Below are positions 660-50,630 of a stretch of DNA of 64,000 nt, one piece after another (within the stretch, counting starts at the first letter, position 1; each line of letters opens with the position of its first letter). The stretch is taken from NCBI GenBank assembly GCA_038043385.1, contig JBBTCA010000001.1, forward strand, positions 171,357 to 235,356, written 5' to 3'. Below the pieces are notes generated by a model that saw only the letters and a program-made list of their open reading frames with translations, had not been told where the DNA came from and made no database searches. Made by a program: the position numbers and the translations under genes. This DNA comes from Pseudomonadota bacterium (GTDB lineage Bacteria > Pseudomonadota > Gammaproteobacteria > Pseudomonadales > Moraxellaceae).

Positions 660-1190
660 ATGTCAGAGACTCCTTTGCTGCCGCACCTCGTTGATCCCGG
701 CAAAATGGCCGAACAGACTGCACAGCTGGTGTTGCGTACCCCGCTGGCGGCGTTCAAGCGTTTGCGCGAAGTCACCCTGAGTGATGACGGCGATGTGAGT
801 GTGCAGATCCGGTTTCATCGCGATGCTCGTGGTGTGCCCAACCTGCGTGGCTCGGTCAGTGCAACGGTTGAGCAAACCTGCCAGCGTTGCCTGAGTGCCG
901 TGAGTGTGGCGGTGCAGGCGGATGTGAATGTGTTTCTGCTGAACGATGAGGCGTATGCCGATCGTCTCAGCGAAGATGATGATTATGTGGTGTTCGGTGA
1001 TGATCGTCTCGATCTGCCCGAGCTCCTTGAAGATGAGCTGATCATGGCGCTGCCGCTGGTGGCGCGCCATGAAGACTGTCAACCGCAAGCGGCGTTGACA
1101 GTGTTGCCGGAAGCCGACGACGAGCCCATGCCGAAGAAAGAAAACCCGTTTCGTGTGCTGGCTGGCTTGAAGCCGTCAGACACGGAGTAA
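660..1190 (+). CDS. yceD: YceD/DUF177 large ribosomal subunit accumulation protein
   Basis: CQRCL motif, ELLEDELIMALPL, C-terminal ENPFRVLAGLK; directly upstream of rpmF. Start set at ATG 660 because the ORF-track start (636) lies inside the promoter. Confidence 0.9.
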   Translation: MSETPLLPHLVDPGKMAEQTAQLVLRTPLAAFKRLREVTLSDDGDVSVQIRFHRDARGVPNLRGSVSATVEQTCQRCLSAVSVAVQADVNVFLLNDEAYADRLSEDDDYVVFGDDRLDLPELLEDELIMALPLVARHEDCQPQAALTVLPEADDEPMPKKENPFRVLAGLKPSDTE

Positions 1191-1246
1191 TGTGATTTAA
1201 CCTGACTGCGGTGACGCAGCCGACCCAGTAAGTGCCGGAGTAGACC

Positions 1247-1429
1247 ATGGCCGTTCAACAAAACCGCAAGAGCCGTTCCCGTCGTGACATGCGTCGTTCG
1301 CATGACGCCCTGAATGGCCCGACCCTCAGCGTCGATCAGACCACTGGTGAATTGCACCGTCGTCACCATGTGACCAAAGACGGTTTCTACCGTGGTCACC
1401 AGCTGTTTGGCGCGAAAGACGAGACCTGA
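1247..1429 (+). CDS. rpmF: 50S ribosomal protein L32
   Basis: [22 protein letters not shown]...[14 protein letters not shown]; GGAG RBS. Confidence 0.97.
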
Positions 1430-1437
1430 TACGCGCC

Positions 1438-2484
1438 ATGCGTATCACCGTGGCGGTGGATGTGATGGGTGGCGACCACGGTGCCGCCGTCACTGTCCCC
1501 GCCGCATTGCAGGTTCTGGCGCAACAGCCTGACCTGCATCTTCTCCTCGTAGGCGATGAAGGGCTGATAACGCCGCTCATCGCCTCCGTCGCATCTGCGC
1601 AGCGCGCTCGTCTGCAGATCGTGCACACCACCGAATTTGTCACCATGAGTGACAAGGTTTCCGTGGCTCTGCGCAACAAGAAACAATCTTCCATGCGGTT
1701 GGCCATCAACGCGGTGCGTGACGGTCAGGCACAGGCTTGCGTGTCTGCCGGCAATACCGGCGCGCTCATGGCCATCGGTCGTTTTGTGCTGAAGACGCAT
1801 GCCGGCATTGATCGCCCGGCCATCATGACCGCCTTGCCGACGCAAACCGGCCATGCGCACATGCTCGACTTGGGCGCGAATGTGGACTCCGATCCGCATC
1901 ATCTCGTGCAATTCGCGGAAATGGGTTCGCTGGTGGCACAAGCGCTGGACGGTCACGGTAAGCCCCGCGTCGGTCTGCTCAACATCGGCGAAGAAGAAAT
2001 CAAGGGCAACGATTTCATCAAGGCCACGCATGAGCTGCTGCGCGCTTCCTCGCTGAATTACATCGGTTATGTGGAAGGCGACGGCATTTTTCATGGCGAT
2101 GCCGATGTGGTGGTATGTGATGGCTTCGTCGGCAATATCGCGCTGAAATGCTCCGAAGGTGTGGCGAAGATGATGGGCGCCAAGATCAAGGAGCAGATCA
2201 ATCGCAACTGGCTTACCAAGCTGCTGGGTCTGCTGGCTTACCCGATCTGGAAGGGTTTGAAGCAGGAAATGGATCCGGGTCGCTACAACGGTGCCAGCCT
2301 GGTCGGGCTCTCGGGCATCGTGGTGAAAAGTCACGGTAGTGCCCAGATTGACTCCTTTGCGCAAGCCTTGCGCGTGGCCATCAAGGAAGTCGAAAAAGAC
2401 ATTCCAGGCCTGCTTGCACGCCACTTCAGCGCCGCTGAAGCCGCCAGAAACGAGCTGGCCGTGGCAGCCGAGTCGTCAACTTAA
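1438..2484 (+). CDS. plsX: phosphate acyltransferase PlsX
   Basis: AVDVMGGDHG, SAGNTGALM, LDLGANVD, VVCDGFVGNIALK, VVKSHG motifs. Confidence 0.96.
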   Translation: MRITVAVDVMGGDHGAAVTVPAALQVLAQQPDLHLLLVGDEGLITPLIASVASAQRARLQIVHTTEFVTMSDKVSVALRNKKQSSMRLAINAVRDGQAQACVSAGNTGALMAIGRFVLKTHAGIDRPAIMTALPTQTGHAHMLDLGANVDSDPHHLVQFAEMGSLVAQALDGHGKPRVGLLNIGEEEIKGNDFIKATHELLRASSLNYIGYVEGDGIFHGDADVVVCDGFVGNIALKCSEGVAKMMGAKIKEQINRNWLTKLLGLLAYPIWKGLKQEMDPGRYNGASLVGLSGIVVKSHGSAQIDSFAQALRVAIKEVEKDIPGLLARHFSAAEAARNELAVAAESST

Positions 2485-2562
2485 GACTATCCGACGCGAC
2501 TTTCCGCGCACTTTTAGGCTACCCTCGCCAGCGTTCCCGATTTACTTCGCAAGGATTCTTCG

Positions 2563-3492
2563 ATGACAACGGCATGGGTATTTCCCGGTCAGGGCTCGCA
2601 GGCCATCGGCATGCTGGCCGATCTGGCAGCTGAATTTTCTACCGTTCAAGACACATTTTCTGAGGCTTCTGCAGCCTTGGGCAAGGATTTGTGGGTGCTG
2701 GCACAGCAAGGCCCGGAGGCTGAACTGAACGCCACTGAAAACACCCAACCCTTGCTGCTCACCGCCGGCATCGCCGTGTGGCGCACCTGGCAGGCACAAG
2801 GTGGCGAAACTCCTCAATTTCTGGCCGGGCACTCGCTTGGTGAATACACTGCGCTGGTCGCCGCTGGCGTATTGTCATTGGCCGATGGCGTGCGCCTGGT
2901 CGCCGAGCGCGGCCGCCTGATGCAGGCGGCGGTGCCGGCCGGGCAGGGTGCCATGGCCGCCATTCTTGGTCTCGATGATGCCGCCGTGATTGCCGCTTGC
3001 GCCGAGGCGGCTCAGGGCGATGTGGTATCGGCGGTGAATTTCAATTCGCCGGGCCAGGTCGTGATTGCCGGCAGCACCGCTGCTGTTGAGCGCGCGATGG
3101 CGGCCTGCAAGACGGCGGGCGCCAAGCGCGCTCTGCCGCTGCCGGTGAGTGCGCCGTCGCATTGTGCGCTGATGCAGCCGGCGGCCGAGAAGCTGGCCAT
3201 CCATCTGCAATCCCTGACCTTTAATACGCCTGTCATCCCGGTGGTGCAGAATGCGGCCGCGCGAATCGAGGCTGATCTGGTTAGTTTGCAATCGTCATTA
3301 ATTACGCAGCTGCACAGCCCGGTATTGTGGTCGCAGAGTGTGCAGTGGTTGGCTGAGCAAGGTGTGACGCGCTTTGTGGAAAGTGGGCCGGGCAAGGTGT
3401 TGACCGGCCTGAACAAGCGTATCGCCAAGGATGCCGAGCATGTGTCGGTGGAGTCCGCCGAAAGTCTCAAGGCCGCATTGGCACTGGTTTGA
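2563..3492 (+). CDS. fabD: malonyl-CoA:ACP transacylase
   Basis: FPGQGSQ, GHSLGEY catalytic motif, VSAPSHC, GPGKVL. Confidence 0.97.
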   Translation: MTTAWVFPGQGSQAIGMLADLAAEFSTVQDTFSEASAALGKDLWVLAQQGPEAELNATENTQPLLLTAGIAVWRTWQAQGGETPQFLAGHSLGEYTALVAAGVLSLADGVRLVAERGRLMQAAVPAGQGAMAAILGLDDAAVIAACAEAAQGDVVSAVNFNSPGQVVIAGSTAAVERAMAACKTAGAKRALPLPVSAPSHCALMQPAAEKLAIHLQSLTFNTPVIPVVQNAAARIEADLVSLQSSLITQLHSPVLWSQSVQWLAEQGVTRFVESGPGKVLTGLNKRIAKDAEHVSVESAESLKAALALV

Positions 3493-3525
3493 TAGCCTAT
3501 AAATAGTCGATTCAGGGGCATGTAT

Positions 3526-4275
3526 ATGGAAAAGTCATTGCAGGACAAAATTGCACTGGTCACTGGCGCTACTCGCGGCATCGGTCGTGCCATTGCGCTC
3601 ACGCTGGGTCGCGAAGGTGCGATTGTGATCGGCACGGCAACCACTGAAGCGGGTGCTGTCAGTATTACGCAGGCGCTGGCCGAGGCGGGCATCGCCGGCC
3701 GTGGCGTGGTGCTGGATGTGGCCGAGCTGAGCAGCATCGAGGCGGTGCTGGAGCAGGTTGTCGCCGAATTCGGCGCGCCGCTCATCGTCGTCAATAATGC
3801 TGGCATCACGCGCGATAACCTCATGCTGCGCATGAAAGAAGACGAGTGGCAGACGGTGATCAATACCAATCTGACTGCCATCTTCCGTGTCACCAAGGCC
3901 AGCCTGAAGGGCATGACCAAGGCACGCTGGGGCCGCATCATCAACATCAGCTCGGTGGTGGGCTCCATGGGCAATGGCGGCCAGGCCAACTACGCGGCTG
4001 CGAAGGCCGGTCTGGAAGGTTTCGGACGGGCGCTGGCTGCCGAGATTGCGTCGCGCAACATCACCGTGAACGCGATTGCGCCGGGCTTCATTGAAACCGA
4101 CATGACGCAGGCGTTGCCAGAAGCACAACGCGAGAAATTGCTGACGCAGGTGCCCGCCGGGCGCTTGGGTCAACCACAAGACATTGCAGAGGCGGTGGCC
4201 TTTCTGGCATCGGAGCGTGCGGCTTACATCACAGGCACGACCTTGCATGTAAACGGCGGGATGTACATGGCCTAG
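3526..4275 (+). CDS. fabG: 3-oxoacyl-ACP reductase
   Basis: TGATRGIG, NNAGITRDNLMLRMK, YAAAK; alternative start at 3520. Confidence 0.96.
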   Translation: MEKSLQDKIALVTGATRGIGRAIALTLGREGAIVIGTATTEAGAVSITQALAEAGIAGRGVVLDVAELSSIEAVLEQVVAEFGAPLIVVNNAGITRDNLMLRMKEDEWQTVINTNLTAIFRVTKASLKGMTKARWGRIINISSVVGSMGNGGQANYAAAKAGLEGFGRALAAEIASRNITVNAIAPGFIETDMTQALPEAQREKLLTQVPAGRLGQPQDIAEAVAFLASERAAYITGTTLHVNGGMYMA

Positions 4276-4341
4276 ACCGGCCAGTCATCCGACACTTATA
4301 AACCTGAAATAACTACTTACGGTTTGCCGGGCAGGCGGTGC

Positions 4342-4370
4342 TTGCCACTCACAGGACGCTTCAATACACT
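4342..4370 (+). promoter_or_regulatory. sigma70 promoter for acpP
   Basis: TTGCCA (4342-4347), 17 nt spacer, TACACT (4365-4370). Confidence 0.55.
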
Positions 4371-4411
4371 TGCGGCGACTTGTCGGCAGTCCGACATCAA
4401 AGGAGATTAAC

Positions 4412-4651
4412 GTGAGCACGATCGAAGAACGCGTCAAGAAAATTGTCGCTGAACAACTGGGTGTGAAGCTGGATGAAGTAACCAACGAAGCCTCATTCGT
4501 CGACGATCTGGGCGCTGATTCGCTGGACACCGTTGAGCTGGTCATGGCTTTGGAAGAAGAGTTCGAGACTGAGATCCCGGACGAAGAAGCAGAGAAGATC
4601 AGCACGGTGCAAACCGCGATCGATTACGTGACCGCGCACAGCAAGCAGTAA
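4412..4651 (+). CDS. acpP: acyl carrier protein
   Basis: GTG start after AGGAG RBS (4401-4405); [20 protein letters not shown] phosphopantetheine motif. Confidence 0.98.
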
Positions 4652-4668
4652 TTGCTGCGGTCAAGAAG

Positions 4669-4703
4669 ACCGCAGGTACGCTGAGCGTATCTGCGGTTTT
4701 TTT
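4669..4703 (+). terminator. rho-independent terminator after acpP
   Basis: ACCGCAGGTACGC-TGA-GCGTATCTGCGGT stem followed by a T-run. Confidence 0.85.
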
Positions 4704-4834
4704 ATGCCTGCGAATTGTCGATGTTGAAGATTTTCAGGGTATTCGCCATGAACAGGCGACTTGTTGTAGTCATGAAGTCGTCACGACTTGGTAACATCAT
4801 GGCGACTGGATGAATTCAGATGAGGAGTGACGCC

Positions 4835-6073
4835 ATGATGTCGCGGCGTGTAGTGGTAACTGGCATGGGCATGTTGACGGCGCTGGGTGCGTCGGTCGAG
4901 CAGACCTGGGCGGGCATTTTGGCCGGGAAAAGTGGCATTCGCGCTATCGATCACTTCGATACCTCGGCCTTTTCCACGCAGTTTGCCGGCACGGTGCTCG
5001 ATTTCGTGGTCGAGGATTATCTGCCGGCGAAAGAAGCGCGGCGTGTGGATGCCTTCATTCAATATGGCTTGGCCGCTGGCCAGCAGGCCTTGGTTGATTC
5101 GGGTCTGGTTGTCACGGAGGCCAATGCCGATCGTATTGGTGTTGCCGTCGGCTCCGGCATTGGCGGTTTGGCGACGATTGAAGATGGGCATATCAGCTTG
5201 CTGGAAGGCGGGCCGCGCAAGATTTCGCCATTCTTTGTGCCAGGTTCGATCATCAATATGGCGGCCGGCATGCTGTCTATTCGTCATGGCCTGAAAGGGC
5301 CGAACTTCTCAGTGACCACGGCCTGTACTACTGCGACCCACTGTATTGGCTTCGCCGCGCGTCTGATTGCCAGTGGCGATGCTGATGCCATGCTCGCTGG
5401 GGGCACCGAAAAGGCGTCTACCCCGCTGGGCATGGGCGGCTTCGGCGCAGCGCGCGCCTTGTCTACGCGCAATGACGATCCGACCAAGGCCAGCCGCCCG
5501 TTCGACAAAGATCGCGATGGCTTTGTGCTGGGCGATGGCGCCGGCGTGCTGATGCTGGAAGAGTATGAGCATGCCAAGGCTCGTGGCGCGCGCATTTACG
5601 CCGAGCTGATCGGCTTCGGCATGAGTGGCGATGCCTATCACATGACCTCGCCGCCGGAGAATGGTGCGGGCGCGGCGTCGGCGATGGCCAATGCCTTGCG
5701 CAATGCCGGCATCAAGCCGGAGCAGGTGCAGTACATCAATGCCCACGGCACTTCCACGCCAGCGGGCGACATCGCCGAGTCGCAGGCCATCATGCAGGTC
5801 TTTGGCGATCATGCGCCGCGACTGGCGGTCAGCTCCACGAAGTCGATGGTTGGTCACTTGCTCGGTGCGGCCGGCGGAGTCGAGGCTATCTTCAGCATTC
5901 TCGCCTTGCGTGACCAGATTGCACCGCCAACGATCAATCTGGATAACCCGGACCCAGCCTGCACGCTGGACTATGTACCGCATGTGGCGCGCGCCATGAA
6001 GATGGATGTCGCGCTGTCGAATTCCTTCGGCTTCGGCGGCACTAATGGCAGCCTGGTGTTTCGCCGCCTGTGA
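4835..6073 (+). CDS. fabF: beta-ketoacyl-ACP synthase II
   Basis: [14 protein letters not shown] active Cys, [24 protein letters not shown]; GAGGAG RBS before ATG 4835. Confidence 0.96.
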
Positions 6074-30659: not shown

Positions 30660-30750
30660 GGTGAGGTGTCCGAGTGGCTGAAGGAGCACGCCTGGAAAGC
30701 GTGTATACGGTAATCCCGTATCGAGGGTTCGAATCCCTCTCTCACCGCCA
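30660..30750 (+). tRNA. tRNA-Ser(GGA)
   Basis: Acceptor GGTGAGG/TCTCACC, D-arm GTCCGAGTGGCTGAAGGAG, anticodon arm CACGC-CTGGAAA-GCGTG, long variable arm, GGTTCGAATCC, encoded CCA. Confidence 0.97.
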
Positions 30751-47400: not shown

Positions 47401-48633
47401 TTATTTGCTGAAGCCGCGCTTGGCGAGTTCTATCTTCGCGATCACGCCCTTGTGCACCTCATCCGGGCCGTCGGCCAGGCGCAAGCTGCGCGCCTGCGCA
47501 AAAAACGCCGTCAACGGCGTATCGCGCGATACCCCGGCGCCGCCATGAATCTGGATGGCCATGTCCACCACCTGCTGCAGCACATTCGGCGCCACCACCT
47601 TGATCGCCGAAATCTCGGTCATCGCCGCAAAAGTACCCACGGCATCCATCTTCCACGCCGCATACAGCGTGAGCAGCCGTGCCTGATCGATGGCGATGCG
47701 CGCCTCGGCGATACGCTCGCGGTTGCCGCCCAAGTTGATCAGCGGCTTGCCAAACGCAGTACGCGAGATGCCGCGATCGATCATCAGCTCCAGCGCCTTT
47801 TCCGCCGCACCGATGCAGCGCATGCAATGGTGAATGCGGCCCGGCCCGAGACGACCCTGCGCAATCGAAAACCCCTGACCCGGCCCACCGATGAAATTGC
47901 TCACCGGCACGCGCACATTGGTGAACAGCACCTCACCGTGGCCGTGCGGCGCATCGTAATCGCCGAACACCGGCAGCATGCGCTGGATCTCCACGCCCGG
48001 CGTGTTCAGCGGTACCAGCACCATGGAGTGCTGGCTGTGACGGCCCTTCTCGGCATCCGGCGTGTGCGCCATGAAGATCGCGATCTTGCAGTCCGGGTCG
48101 CCGATGCCGCTCGACCACCACTTGCGGCCGTTGAGCACGATTTCATCGCCCTCGATGATCGCCGTGGCCTGCATATTGGTCGCATCCGACGACGCCACAT
48201 CCGGCTCGGTCATGCAGAACACGGAGCGGATTTCGCCATTTAATAGCGGCGTCAGCCATTGAGCCTTCTGCGCCTCGCTGCCATAACGCCACAGCACCTC
48301 CATGTTGCCGGTATCCGGCGCGTTGCAGTTGAACACGGTGGGCGCGAGCAGGCTGCGGCCGGTCTGCTCGGCGATGTGCGCGTACTCGGCGATGGTCAGG
48401 CCGGCTCCCAGCTCCTCGCTCGGCATCCACAGATTCCACAATCCTTGCGCCTTGGCCTTGCGCTTCAATTCTTCCAGCACGGCCGGGTGCTTCCACTGGC
48501 GCCAGTCGCCATCCGGATTGCTGGCATGCACCTCGGCCCAGAAGGCCGGCTCGACCGGCTCGATGTGCTCGCGCATGAATGCTTTCACACGCGCCACATA
48601 ATCCTGACCGCGTTCGCTGAGTTCGAAATGCAT
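47401..48633 (-). CDS. acyl-CoA dehydrogenase (ACAD10/11 or LvaC-like)
   Basis: GLWNLW, FNCNAPDTGNME, MTEPDVASSDA, QGRLGPGRIHHCMR, RLADGPDEVH. Confidence 0.93.
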   Translation of the reverse strand: MHFELSERGQDYVARVKAFMREHIEPVEPAFWAEVHASNPDGDWRQWKHPAVLEELKRKAKAQGLWNLWMPSEELGAGLTIAEYAHIAEQTGRSLLAPTVFNCNAPDTGNMEVLWRYGSEAQKAQWLTPLLNGEIRSVFCMTEPDVASSDATNMQATAIIEGDEIVLNGRKWWSSGIGDPDCKIAIFMAHTPDAEKGRHSQHSMVLVPLNTPGVEIQRMLPVFGDYDAPHGHGEVLFTNVRVPVSNFIGGPGQGFSIAQGRLGPGRIHHCMRCIGAAEKALELMIDRGISRTAFGKPLINLGGNRERIAEARIAIDQARLLTLYAAWKMDAVGTFAAMTEISAIKVVAPNVLQQVVDMAIQIHGGAGVSRDTPLTAFFAQARSLRLADGPDEVHKGVIAKIELAKRGFSK

Positions 48634-48780
48634 GACGATTTTCCTGAATCAAGGGAATGACAAGTGACCGATCCTAGTGCCTGGCGTACGATGCAGGAAA
48701 TGATGATTTCTCATGGTTGGTCATGAATCAGATGAATGGATTGGCGCACGCGCGGCTCAGCTAGGTACTAGCGATACCTA

Positions 48781-48810
48781 TTGACGAAGCAGGGTGCCAG
48801 CGCCTAGAAT
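48781..48810 (+). promoter_or_regulatory. sigma70 promoter with no downstream ORF (drives putative ncRNA)
   Basis: TTGACG (48781-48786), N18, TAGAAT (48805-48810). Confidence 0.65.
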
Positions 48811-48816
48811 TTTTTC

Positions 48817-48937
48817 TGTGAGGCTTCCTATGCCGATGGGAGAAGCCGCCCGCCCGAAAGGGTCCTAGCCAAGTCTGGGTATAAAGAGGAATCGGTCCGT
48901 TTCAACAAAAGCCCTGCTCATGCAGGGCTTTTGTTTT
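48817..48937 (+). ncRNA. putative ~120-nt structured non-coding RNA
   Basis: Promoter upstream, stems GGCTTC/GAAGCC and CCC-GAAA-GGG, possible pseudoknot, strong terminator at the end; no credible ORF. Confidence 0.55.
48904..48937. terminator. bidirectional terminator shared by ncRNA and convergent ORF
   Basis: Perfect 14-bp stem AACAAAAGCCCTGC-TCAT-GCAGGGCTTTTGTT with T-tracts on both strands. Confidence 0.88.
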
Positions 48938-48951
48938 ATGAGGCTCTTTTT

Positions 48952-49533
48952 TCACGATTTTGCCGCTTTCACCGACTTGCTGCTTGGGCCCTTGGCTTTC
49001 GCCGGTATTACGCCCAGTAGCTCGGCACAAAGCCTGCCAAAGGCTTTTCGTTGCTCACGCCGCATGCCTCCGGGATTGTCTTTCAGGTAGGCGCTTTGCA
49101 AGTACAGTATCAGCAGCCTGCCTTCGTGCGGTGACCGATACAGATCGAAAAACAGCAAATAAGGCGAGTCACCATCGCCATCTGCCGGTGGCTTCCAGAC
49201 CATGTAGTTGTTGTACTTGGCGCGATAGCAAGGAATTGCATCGGCAACCAGAGCCATGACAATAGTGGGCAGCTCCAGCGATCTCAGATACCGGCTTTCG
49301 GCGAACTTGCGGCAATGACCGCCACGATCCAGCCAATAGGCCGGCCCGGTGGCTACGATGGTTGATTTCTCCGTCACCACATGGCAATCAAAGACCACAC
49401 GGATGATAGCGCTGAGTGCAGGCAATGGCCCTTTGGCAGGCTTATCAAAGGAAATATCAAATGTACGAAGGTGCCGAAAAGAAAAGGCCCTGCCATTGAT
49501 GCAGCGATCTGCCCAGACATTGTTTTGTGCCAT
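48952..49533 (-). CDS. hypothetical protein, possible BECR/RelE-like ribonuclease
   Basis: 193 aa, AAGGAAG RBS, atypical lower-GC codon use; VFDCHVVTE, SRYLRSLELP, C-terminal LILYLQSAY strand, basic tail. Confidence 0.7.
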   Translation of the reverse strand: MAQNNVWADRCINGRAFSFRHLRTFDISFDKPAKGPLPALSAIIRVVFDCHVVTEKSTIVATGPAYWLDRGGHCRKFAESRYLRSLELPTIVMALVADAIPCYRAKYNNYMVWKPPADGDGDSPYLLFFDLYRSPHEGRLLILYLQSAYLKDNPGGMRREQRKAFGRLCAELLGVIPAKAKGPSSKSVKAAKS

Positions 49534-49679
49534 CGGATCTGCTTCCTTGCAGCCAGCGTGAGAGGGTGCGACTTCCTGTCGTCACCTACACCTATTGTAG
49601 ATCGGCAAATGGCGCATTGCTGTTGCTGTTTCGCTGACTCGGCTACGATGCACAAAATGAAGCACAGCAGCGGGCAGCC

Positions 49680-50630
49680 ATGAATAAAACGAATGACACA
49701 AACTGGCCCGGCCAGCCCGACTCCAGCCGCCCGGACATCAGCCGTCTCGACCTCAATCTCTTCCGCGTCTTCGACACCATCTACCGCGAGCGCAACCTCA
49801 CGCGCGCCGCCGAGATACTGTGCCTGAGTCAGTCCGCTGTCAGTCATGCCATTGGTCGCCTGCGCACGCAGCTCGGCGACCCGCTGTTCGTGCGCGAAGG
49901 GCAGGGCGTGGTGCCGACGCCGCTGGCGGATCGCCTGTGGCCGGATATCCAGGAGGCGCTGGCGCTGTTCCGCCAGGCTGTGCATCGCAGCCAGGTCTTC
50001 GAGCCGGCGCGCGACATCGCGCAGATCACGCTGGCGATGAACGACGAGCTGGAGCCGAGCATCCTGCCCGTGCTGGTGCGGGCCTTGCGCGCGGCGGTGC
50101 CGGCGTTGCGCATCGCCAGTGTGCGGCTGGACCGCGCCAGCCTGCGCGCCGACCTCGCCGCCGGGCGGCTCGATTGCGCCATCGACATCGCGCAGCCGGT
50201 ATCGCCAGACCTCTGTCATGCCCTGTTATTGCAGGATGACTTCGTGGTGGTCAGCCGCGCCTCGCCCAAAGCGCCGCGCAAACTTGATGCCAAGGCCTAT
50301 CTCGCCGCGCAGCATGTGACCGTGTCATCGCGCCGTACCGGTCGTGCCGTGGAGGATCTGGGCCTGGCGCGGCTGGGGCTGGAACGGCAGGTGGTGATGC
50401 GCTGTCAGCACTACGAGGCCGCGTGCCGGATTGTGGCGGAGACGGATCTACTGCTGACCATGCCCCGGCGGCAGGCCGAGGCTATTAATGCGGCAGTGGG
50501 TAATGCCGTGCTGGAACTGCCGGTGCAGCTGCCGGGCGTGGAGCTGCATTTGTACTGGCATCGACAGCGCGAGGCGGATCCGGCTAATCAGTGGTTGCGG
50601 GAGCGGGTGATGGCCGGGGTGCGTGGCTGA
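49680..50630 (+). CDS. LysR family transcriptional regulator
   Basis: LDLNLFRVFDTIYRERNLTRAAEILCLSQSAVSHAIGRLR HTH; LAAGRLDCAID. Confidence 0.94.
   Translation: MNKTNDTNWPGQPDSSRPDISRLDLNLFRVFDTIYRERNLTRAAEILCLSQSAVSHAIGRLRTQLGDPLFVREGQGVVPTPLADRLWPDIQEALALFRQAVHRSQVFEPARDIAQITLAMNDELEPSILPVLVRALRAAVPALRIASVRLDRASLRADLAAGRLDCAIDIAQPVSPDLCHALLLQDDFVVVSRASPKAPRKLDAKAYLAAQHVTVSSRRTGRAVEDLGLARLGLERQVVMRCQHYEAACRIVAETDLLLTMPRRQAEAINAAVGNAVLELPVQLPGVELHLYWHRQREADPANQWLRERVMAGVRG

Follow-up and report, generated by a model that had tools for sequence, protein, structure and literature searches.

Within a stretch of 64,000 nucleotides (nt) from a Moraxellaceae bacterium (assembly GCA_038043385.1, contig JBBTCA010000001.1, positions 171,357 to 235,356; hereafter the window), our analysis revealed a cassette in which the gene of a small structured RNA on the plus strand converges on a minus-strand open reading frame (ORF) of 193 amino acids, whose product belongs to the PF27200 (YjaZ) protein family. 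The same arrangement is found in Escherichia coli, where the small RNA SroH is encoded tail-to-tail with yjaZ. We estimate at roughly 60% the probability that the cassette is a horizontally acquired, self-contained RNA-protein module of the yjaZ-sroH kind, whose protein would recognise the pseudoknotted RNA in a dedicated complex. That the two genes form one functionally coupled module is a claim that we make with considerable confidence, because their linkage is strict, their geometry is fixed and constraint is stronger on the RNA core than on the protein. The cassette is a feature far beyond chance, since the RNA recurs beside every close homologue of the protein and its helices carry compensatory base changes.

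The initial annotation had presented the cassette as a candidate new toxin-antitoxin or defence module, built of a structured non-coding RNA and an RNase-like orphan ORF. All the features that it described were recovered at, or close to, the coordinates it gave. In the strict sense the architecture is not new, as it is that of E. coli yjaZ-sroH, and because this homologous locus exists in E. coli K-12, the cassette is more ordinary than a new class of toxin-antitoxin system. What is new here is an RNA family not yet represented in Rfam, a variant of an already known and uncharacterised locus type. Our comparison shows that the yjaZ-sroH locus is an ancient, mobile RNA-protein unit, which is of more interest than a lone cassette.

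Linkage of the RNA gene and the YjaZ-family gene

Each of the nine species-representative genomes with a close relative of the protein (Massilia, Ralstonia, two Cupriavidus, Lysobacterales, two Luteibacter, Noviluteimonas and Xanthomonas) has the non-coding block directly past the 3' end of the ORF, on the other strand. When these nine genomes and 28 metagenome loci were searched by single-sequence nhmmer, the RNA block was recovered at 30 of the 37 loci, and the seven misses comprised five contigs that end at or just past the ORF and two distant subfamilies. The covariance model R1, built from 23 distinct RNA cores, matched 27 of the 37 sources with E-values of 3e-17 to 1.5e-28, plus 1e-9 for one match cut by a contig end. 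Scores of 60-96 bits were obtained at every sufficiently complete locus of the close subfamily, including three loci (L038-L040) that had been left out of model building. The window itself scored 69.1 bits (E 6e-20) at 48817-48900, which defines a structured core of about 85 nt for the SroH-like RNA, and this was the single significant R1 match in the whole window. R1 also matched a Collimonas plasmid and a Xanthomonas plasmid, the latter with 34.6 bits (E 7e-9) beside a protein only 27% identical to that of the window. The proposal that RNA and ORF act as one module is thus strengthened, as the convergent placement of the RNA recurs at all homologues that are sufficiently complete, plasmids included.

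The geometry is maintained as well as the linkage. The gap between the stop codon of the protein gene and the RNA core measures 15-61 nt and corresponds to the terminator. At 17 of 25 related loci, promoter-like hexamers with sequences that differ lie upstream of the RNA core and end 2-13 nt short of it. The mean p-distance between loci was 0.28 for the RNA core vs 0.56 for the protein, so that the RNA is the more conserved partner, and the two sets of distances are correlated (rho 0.49).

Structure of the small RNA

A sigma-70-like promoter (TTGACG-N18-TAGAAT, 10 of 12 matches) precedes the RNA on the plus strand at 48781-48810, as had been proposed from the sequence; it is the only promoter-like site within the 1.3 kb from 48500 to 49800, where shuffled sequences hold 0.7 on average. 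The non-coding stretch of the cassette amounts to about 90 nt. The prediction of a structured non-coding sequence was confirmed by the fold of a 131-nt non-coding stretch (-53.1 kcal/mol, z = -3.3) and by covarying pairs. At its 3' end lies a bidirectional intrinsic terminator common to both genes (48904-48939), whose arms of 14 nt (48904-48917 and 48922-48935) are 100% complementary and enclose a 4-nt loop, which agrees with the earlier description of a perfect hairpin. It is flanked on the plus strand by an A-run on the 5' side and a T-run on the 3' side, with a U-rich run on the minus strand, and its stem covaries between loci.

Folding of the aligned sequences by RNAalifold returned the terminator, the hairpin P2 and an unexpected long-range helix between the loop of the hairpin P1 (GCCGAU) and a downstream AUCGG. 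A structure comprising P1, P2, P3 and this pseudoknot was written by hand, and its pairs were counted on a MAFFT alignment and on a model-fitted alignment of 26 sequences. Standard pairs filled 92.7% of the paired cells in the MAFFT alignment and 94.7% in the model-fitted one, vs 23-51% and 23-53%, respectively, when the partners were slid by 1-3 columns. Compensatory change was seen at 8 pairs (MAFFT) and 10 pairs (model-fitted), and the observed covariation score was attained by 0 of 500 shuffles on either alignment. The RNA is thus a covariation-supported structure of three hairpins plus a pseudoknot.

All elements of this structure lie on the plus strand. P1 pairs 48822-48827 with 48842-48847 and bears an invariant GCCG in its loop; its pair 8:38 is UA in 14, CG in 10 and UG in 2 sequences, and its pair 7:39 is GC in 23 and CG in 3. 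A near-invariant linker, (G/A)CCC, follows at 48848-48851, its CCC being invariant and single-stranded. P2 (GCCC-GAAA-GGGU, 48852-48863) covaries at pairs 48:61 and 49:60 (AU, UA, CG and GC); its loop differs between loci in both length and sequence, and its G-U closing pairs are compatible with the plus strand only. P3 (CCUAG...CUGGG, 48864-48879) is helix 4 of the count, with 92.7% of its cells paired and with pair 66:78 changing between UA (8) and CG (6). The near-invariant and single-stranded segment AAGAGGA (48884-48890) stands directly 5' of the 3' strand of the pseudoknot; AAGAGG is invariant among the 23 distinct sequences, and the final A is replaced by G in four of them. The pseudoknot joins CCGAU of the P1 loop (48833-48837) with AUCGG (48891-48895). 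Its pair 21:93 is AU in 14 and GC in 12 sequences with zero violations, three other pairs are invariant C-G or G-C, and the counts hold on the plain MAFFT alignment too.

One further covarying pair stands alone, between alignment columns 13 and 91 (window 48829 and 48890), with UA in 21, CG in 3, UG in 1 and a mismatch in one sequence. It may tentatively be read as a tertiary contact stacking on the pseudoknot; its changes are confined to one lineage. The segment AAGAGGA was also considered as a working ribosome-binding site and rejected, because no conserved start codon follows downstream.

At the gathering threshold, a search of the whole window and 12 related loci against Rfam placed no family on this RNA and returned transfer RNAs (tRNAs) and sRNA-Xcc1 elsewhere; at E <= 10 the cassette region yielded terminator-driven noise only. 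The check for an assignment to a known unrelated Rfam family, proposed along with the initial annotation, accordingly returned none, and the companion check for conservation of the RNA beside homologues of the ORF gave the positive result described above. The window-type RNA represents at least one family missing from Rfam.

The YjaZ-family protein

The ORF (48952-49533, minus strand) has its stop codon 16 nt past the 3' arm of the terminator hairpin. It carries its own ribosome-binding site, as had been noted earlier (AGGAAG, 49543-49548, minus strand, 9 nt 5' of the start codon ATG, 49533). The label of orphan does not apply, because 62 homologues at 39-98% identity were retrieved from 5.8 billion proteins, and all 62 are tagged PF27200, which the neighbourhood tables name "YjaZ". 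The closest homologue (P0001, 98% identical) bears the precomputed tag PF27200.1, which is also found on relatives of E. coli YjaZ. When a profile of the window subfamily was compared with E. coli YjaZ by hhalign, the alignment spanned 127 columns (E 3.9e-5, probability 70%), and the motifs H-x-x-T, R-x-F-x3-RY and SAY are common to both. Together these sequence comparisons identify the 193-amino-acid product as a member of the PF27200 family. An exhaustive HMMER scan of 50%-identity clusters places the size of the family at 893 representatives at E <= 1e-3 and 338 at E <= 1e-10.

No match to the protein was obtained in scans of local Pfam-A and NCBIfam copies. The local Pfam-A predates PF27200 and does not hold its model, because even E. 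coli YjaZ gets no match there. Likewise, PADLOC-DB 2.0 gave no defence family at E <= 10, and PHROGs gave no match. The AlphaFold model (predicted local distance difference test, pLDDT, 89.3; predicted template modelling score, pTM, 0.84) is mostly beta, with a C-terminal tail that is predicted to be disordered and is rich in lysine. No fold neighbour was found in BFVD, nor a relative of solved structure by comparison of the sequence profile with PDB chains. The reading of the ORF as RNase-like is not sustained, as it has neither a nuclease signature nor a fold neighbour.

Relation to yjaZ-sroH of E. coli

In E. coli MG1655, yjaZ (4189786-4190325, plus strand; b3989, formerly htrC) is followed tail-to-tail by sroH (4190327-4190487, minus strand; b4691, Rfam RF00372), which starts 1 nt past the yjaZ stop codon. 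The gene yjaZ/htrC was reportedly described in 1990 and SroH in 2003. In the literature, yjaZ (synonym htrC) is listed as uncharacterised and the htrC designation as retracted (PMC11551758), and the function of SroH is given as "still unknown". Mutants deleted for sroH are viable, with a sensitivity to cell-envelope stress; the RNA undergoes polyadenylation and binds PNPase (PMC5389530, PMC13572404), therefore it is turned over. The kbl messenger RNA (mRNA) is reported to be bound by SroH in vitro and was proposed as its target (PMC6172242). NCBIfam labels E. coli YjaZ a "stationary phase growth adaptation protein". A literature search on PF27200, yjaZ, SroH and htrC found no paper linking SroH and YjaZ functionally.

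The two loci share the Pfam family of the protein, a convergent small RNA that has its own promoter and reaches to the stop codon of its neighbouring protein gene, and the order of RNA elements: P1, C-rich linker, ACC-hairpin-GGUC, short hairpin, GGUAA, a segment complementary to the loop, and terminator. Neither gene of either pair has an assigned function, and in E. coli the locus is accessory. They differ in that the proteins are only about 22-28% identical over the aligned part and in that SroH has the extra hairpins P1b and P4 as well as a 5' extension of about 30 nt. The pseudoknot is backed by covariation in the window type, whereas in the SroH type it is suggested by an invariant complementarity of four base pairs.

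SroH-type RNAs were found beside YjaZ homologues in E. coli, Aeromonas, Thiolinea, Oceanimonas, an Erwinia-like metagenome contig, Waterburya, Symploca and one further contig (L042 for E. coli, L043-L045 and L049-L052), and are about 68% identical among themselves. SroH therefore reaches beyond the enterobacteria and includes two cyanobacteria (Waterburya and Symploca). These RNAs show covarying hairpins P1b, P2 and P4, which are missing from the Rfam sroH model. That model scores 201 bits on E. coli and contains the terminator stem only, so that it is in effect an enterobacterial sequence profile; as an entry it is far too narrow and poor in structure. Further RNA subtypes occupy the same convergent position at two loci (L035/L037) and on plasmids of Citrobacter, Fluviibacter, Ralstonia and Vibrio. 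From 5' to 3', all subtypes present P1 with an elaborated loop, a C-rich linker, ACC-hairpin-GGU(C), a short hairpin, GGUAA or UAAGAG, and the terminator. A segment complementary to the P1 loop precedes the terminator in four of the five subtypes and was not found in the Fluviibacter/Ralstonia type. The shared layout and the motifs ACC-hairpin-GGUC and GGUAA come from a comparison of the subtypes by eye. The Rfam sroH model gave no match to the window RNA even at E <= 10, and R1 gave none to the SroH-type loci or to three other plasmid types; the homology of the window RNA and SroH is therefore positional and architectural, not statistical.

Because both genes travel as a unit in Beta- and Gammaproteobacteria, in Cyanobacteria and on small plasmids, the two orphan annotations SroH and YjaZ can be merged into a single hypothesis of an RNA-protein partnership that is open to test in E. 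coli K-12. The protein of this partnership would have a fold for which no related structure has been solved.

Distribution and mobility

The genomic context of the module was different in every lineage examined. It lies between rpoC (upstream) and thiH (downstream) in E. coli, between tuf-rpsJ and a ROK-family gene on one metagenome contig (L038), and between cheW and cheA on another (L045). In Lysobacter it is preceded by a gene with an XAC0095 domain and followed by a short-chain dehydrogenase gene, and in Waterburya it stands between a 73-amino-acid ORF, with sodB further upstream, and pyrF. In Aeromonas an RDD-family gene lies upstream and phage tail genes lie downstream; in Aeromonas hydrophila (L043, 5375-8543) these adjoining genes include HP1_ORF34 and tail-assembly domains, so that the module stands at a prophage edge.

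By tblastn the YjaZ family was found on 23 plasmid records, 13 of them conjugative, and the plasmid copies often adjoin rep, par, resolvase (res) or RelE genes. On the ColE1-like plasmid NZ_CP133850.1 of Citrobacter freundii (L046, 4448 bp), only three genes are annotated, namely the YjaZ-family gene, rop and an excisionase-family gene; the convergent structured RNA there shows a loop-to-tail complementarity of CCGGA with UCCGG. No member of the family was found in 50,697 phage records. Among complete E. coli genomes, 3741 of 5426 (69%) carry yjaZ-sroH, with five copies on plasmids, and the locus is accordingly accessory in this species. Some E. coli genomes retain only a 45-nt remnant of it. 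The horizontal acquisition that forms part of our overall statement, and shares its probability, is favoured by the low GC (guanine plus cytosine) content of the cassette, the differing contexts, the carriage on plasmids and the patchy presence in E. coli.

Transfer RNA genes were observed near the module at two loci: a tRNA together with a match to sRNA-Xcc1, a family tied to integron cassettes, lies 0.5-1.5 kb upstream of the module in Noviluteimonas (L007, 2447-2520 and 3393-3478), and a tRNA lies upstream of it in a Lysobacterales metagenome-assembled genome (L004, 1822-1892). Such neighbours hint at genomic islands or integration hot spots.

Proposed mechanism and alternative explanations

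In the model that we favour, a small RNA of about 125 nt would be transcribed from its own sigma-70-type promoter, fold into three hairpins locked by the pseudoknot between the P1 loop and the segment 3' of P3, and end at the intrinsic terminator also used by the convergent YjaZ-family gene. It would serve as the dedicated partner of the YjaZ-family protein, with the pseudoknotted core and the invariant single-stranded CCC and AAGAGG forming the predicted protein-binding surface, perhaps helped by the basic tail of the protein. Binding would allow the RNA to tune, restrain or direct the activity of the protein, and additional regulation in cis may come from the complementarity between the two transcripts at their 3' ends. 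The output of the module would most likely be a stress- or maintenance-related accessory function on mobile DNA. Comparable cases are Rsr/Ro with Y RNA and SmpB with tmRNA, in which the gene of a structured RNA is kept beside that of its partner protein over a wide phylogenetic distance; as with SmpB, the partner is a small protein rich in beta structure that carries a basic tail. The YjaZ-family protein is related to neither Ro nor SmpB by sequence or fold, and the comparison is one of analogy only.

Several points weigh against this model. The binding of RNA by the protein is predicted from linkage and structure; no recognisable RNA-binding domain was found in the 193-amino-acid sequence, and Foldseek found no fold neighbour in the PDB (best E 0.12, TM <= 0.22). 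The invariant convergent geometry could mean selection for antisense control in cis instead of protein binding. No RNA sequencing run covers the window, and three runs under the Xanthomonas species label and one wastewater metatranscriptome yielded 0 reads. The relationship of this RNA to SroH, finally, is suggested by position, helix order and the short motifs ACC-hairpin-GGUC and GGUAA.

The cassette could alternatively be a type III-like toxin-antitoxin or abortive infection system, in which a toxic YjaZ-family protein is neutralised by the single-copy pseudoknotted RNA and is set free when this labile RNA is lost after plasmid loss or phage attack. Such a system would suit a self-contained two-gene cassette of lower GC content with a patchy, context-independent distribution (present in 69% of E. 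coli genomes), its carriage on 23 plasmids, 13 of them conjugative and often beside par, res, rep or RelE genes, its place among the three annotated genes of a 4.4-kb ColE1-like plasmid, and the turnover of SroH. ToxIN, CptIN and TenpIN are likewise compact pairs of an RNA gene and a protein gene, carried on plasmids and chromosomes, with a terminator between them and a pseudoknot-forming RNA. Their structural hallmarks are nevertheless all missing here: the RNA of those systems is a tandem array of short repeats located upstream on the same strand, whereas the RNA of the cassette (plus strand) is single-copy and converges on the ORF (minus strand), no tandem repeats being present in 48600-49700; and their toxin is an endoribonuclease of the ToxN/AbiQ/CptN/TenpN type, to which the YjaZ-family protein is unrelated by sequence or fold. 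The earlier remark that the architecture is not that of a type III repeat array therefore stands, with the single R1 match adding to it. The protein shows no nuclease motif and no match to a fold, to PADLOC or PHROGs entries or to a toxin family, and homologues are lacking in the phage records. A strict role as antitoxin is further disfavoured because deletion of sroH in E. coli is viable and renders cells only sensitive to envelope stress (PMC5389530, PMC13572404). We regard this explanation as doubtful. To the same extent it is a speculative idea that YjaZ proteins and SroH-like RNAs constitute an ancient mobile plasmid-stabilising or anti-phage class, previously unrecognised and of an architecture unlike that of type I and type III toxin-antitoxin systems, with a native copy in E. 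coli K-12, in which a single-copy convergent RNA would act as antitoxin, sensor or specificity subunit of an effector with a new fold. If the module is an addiction or defence system, it would represent a new architecture for RNA-based control of toxins. A purely antisense role, in which the RNA would regulate the convergent mRNA in cis by way of the complementary terminator or 3' end that they share (by transcriptional interference, cleavage by RNase III or 3'-end stability, as at convergent type I loci such as par/Fst), with no RNA-protein complex involved, is rather improbable in our view. It would account for the tail-to-tail geometry and the gap of 15-61 nt, which all subfamilies retain, including those whose RNA sequences can no longer be recognised as alike, and for loci at which the RNA seems to extend with its 3' end into the coding sequence (L009/L026/L030, with a gap of 15-16 nt, and L035/L037, with no U-tract before the stop codon). 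Against it, the overlap in the window is essentially the terminator hairpin, and the covarying pseudoknotted core, which simple antisense control would not need, is not part of this overlap and is better conserved than the protein; the earlier argument from minimal overlap against a type I mechanism is upheld on the same grounds. A par-like pairing of the RNA with the translation start region was rejected for want of cognate-specific complementarity, the duplex energies averaging -34.5 kcal/mol for cognate vs -34.7 kcal/mol for non-cognate combinations, with start codons placed approximately. The par/Fst system of pAD1 (RNA I-RNA II) resembles the cassette in its convergent transcripts, its one shared terminator and its carriage on plasmids; in contrast to the 193-amino-acid product of the cassette, a predicted soluble, beta-rich protein with a confident globular model, its toxin is a short hydrophobic membrane peptide, and the cassette RNA has its conserved core outside the overlap. 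Of the features that define type III and type I systems, none of those that could be tested is present in the cassette.

Two further explanations were weighed. An ordinary trans-acting small RNA that base-pairs with mRNAs elsewhere, with the ORF as a chance neighbour, would be in line with the in vitro binding of SroH to kbl mRNA (PMC6172242) and with the envelope-stress phenotype of the sroH deletion. The linkage to the YjaZ family, however, is seen in Beta- and Gammaproteobacteria, in Cyanobacteria and on small plasmids, among whose hosts the targets differ, and the conserved positions are structural rather than a single-stranded seed, which makes this explanation very improbable. That the conserved block is not an RNA gene at all, and instead a 3' untranslated region, a DNA site bound by a protein or a very short ORF, is scarcely credible. 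The P1 loop nearly always contains an AUG or GUG, and the block directly abuts the ORF; nevertheless, changes in the length of P2 are not multiples of three and break the frame, and at one locus the AUG is directly followed by UGA, so that a small ORF within the RNA was rejected. The block lies beyond the terminator relative to the transcript of the ORF, and a minus-strand 3' untranslated region was likewise rejected on account of the G-U pairs in P1, P2 and P3, which are compatible with the plus strand only, and of the promoter-like sites, which face the plus strand in most loci. E. coli SroH, moreover, is an annotated and experimentally detected RNA.

Borders of the cassette and other features of the window

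The cassette forms a low-GC block of about 1 kb between a minus-strand acyl-CoA dehydrogenase gene on the left (47401-48633) and a plus-strand gene for a LysR regulator on the right (49680-50630). Its GC content of 0.51-0.55 vs 0.61-0.74 in the flanks corroborates the earlier description of a self-contained cassette of lower GC content. The edges of the block coincide with two copies of an imperfect 26-nt direct repeat (48678-48703 on the left and 49635-49660 on the right), 20 of 26 positions being identical (77%) at a spacing of 957 nt. The pair may represent an insertion scar or a duplicated target; by a rough estimate such a match arises by chance about once in 100 cases, and two-copy repeats can occur by chance. 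A perfect 14-nt inverted repeat was also observed within the ORF (49030-49043 and 49430-49443, 386 nt apart); it encodes KPAKG and FGRL, and its chance occurrence within 1.1 kb is unlikely.

In one wastewater metagenome, the assembly depth falls from about 1000-5000 to about 10-20 immediately left of the cassette (window 48600-48750), and the high-depth contig diverges from the window at 48738. This pattern suggests abundant relatives that differ in sequence to the right of 48738, and the drop at the left edge would be compatible with a strain-variable insertion. Elsewhere in the 64-kb window, an 88-nt tRNA gene at 30660-30747 is the sole Rfam match at gathering level.

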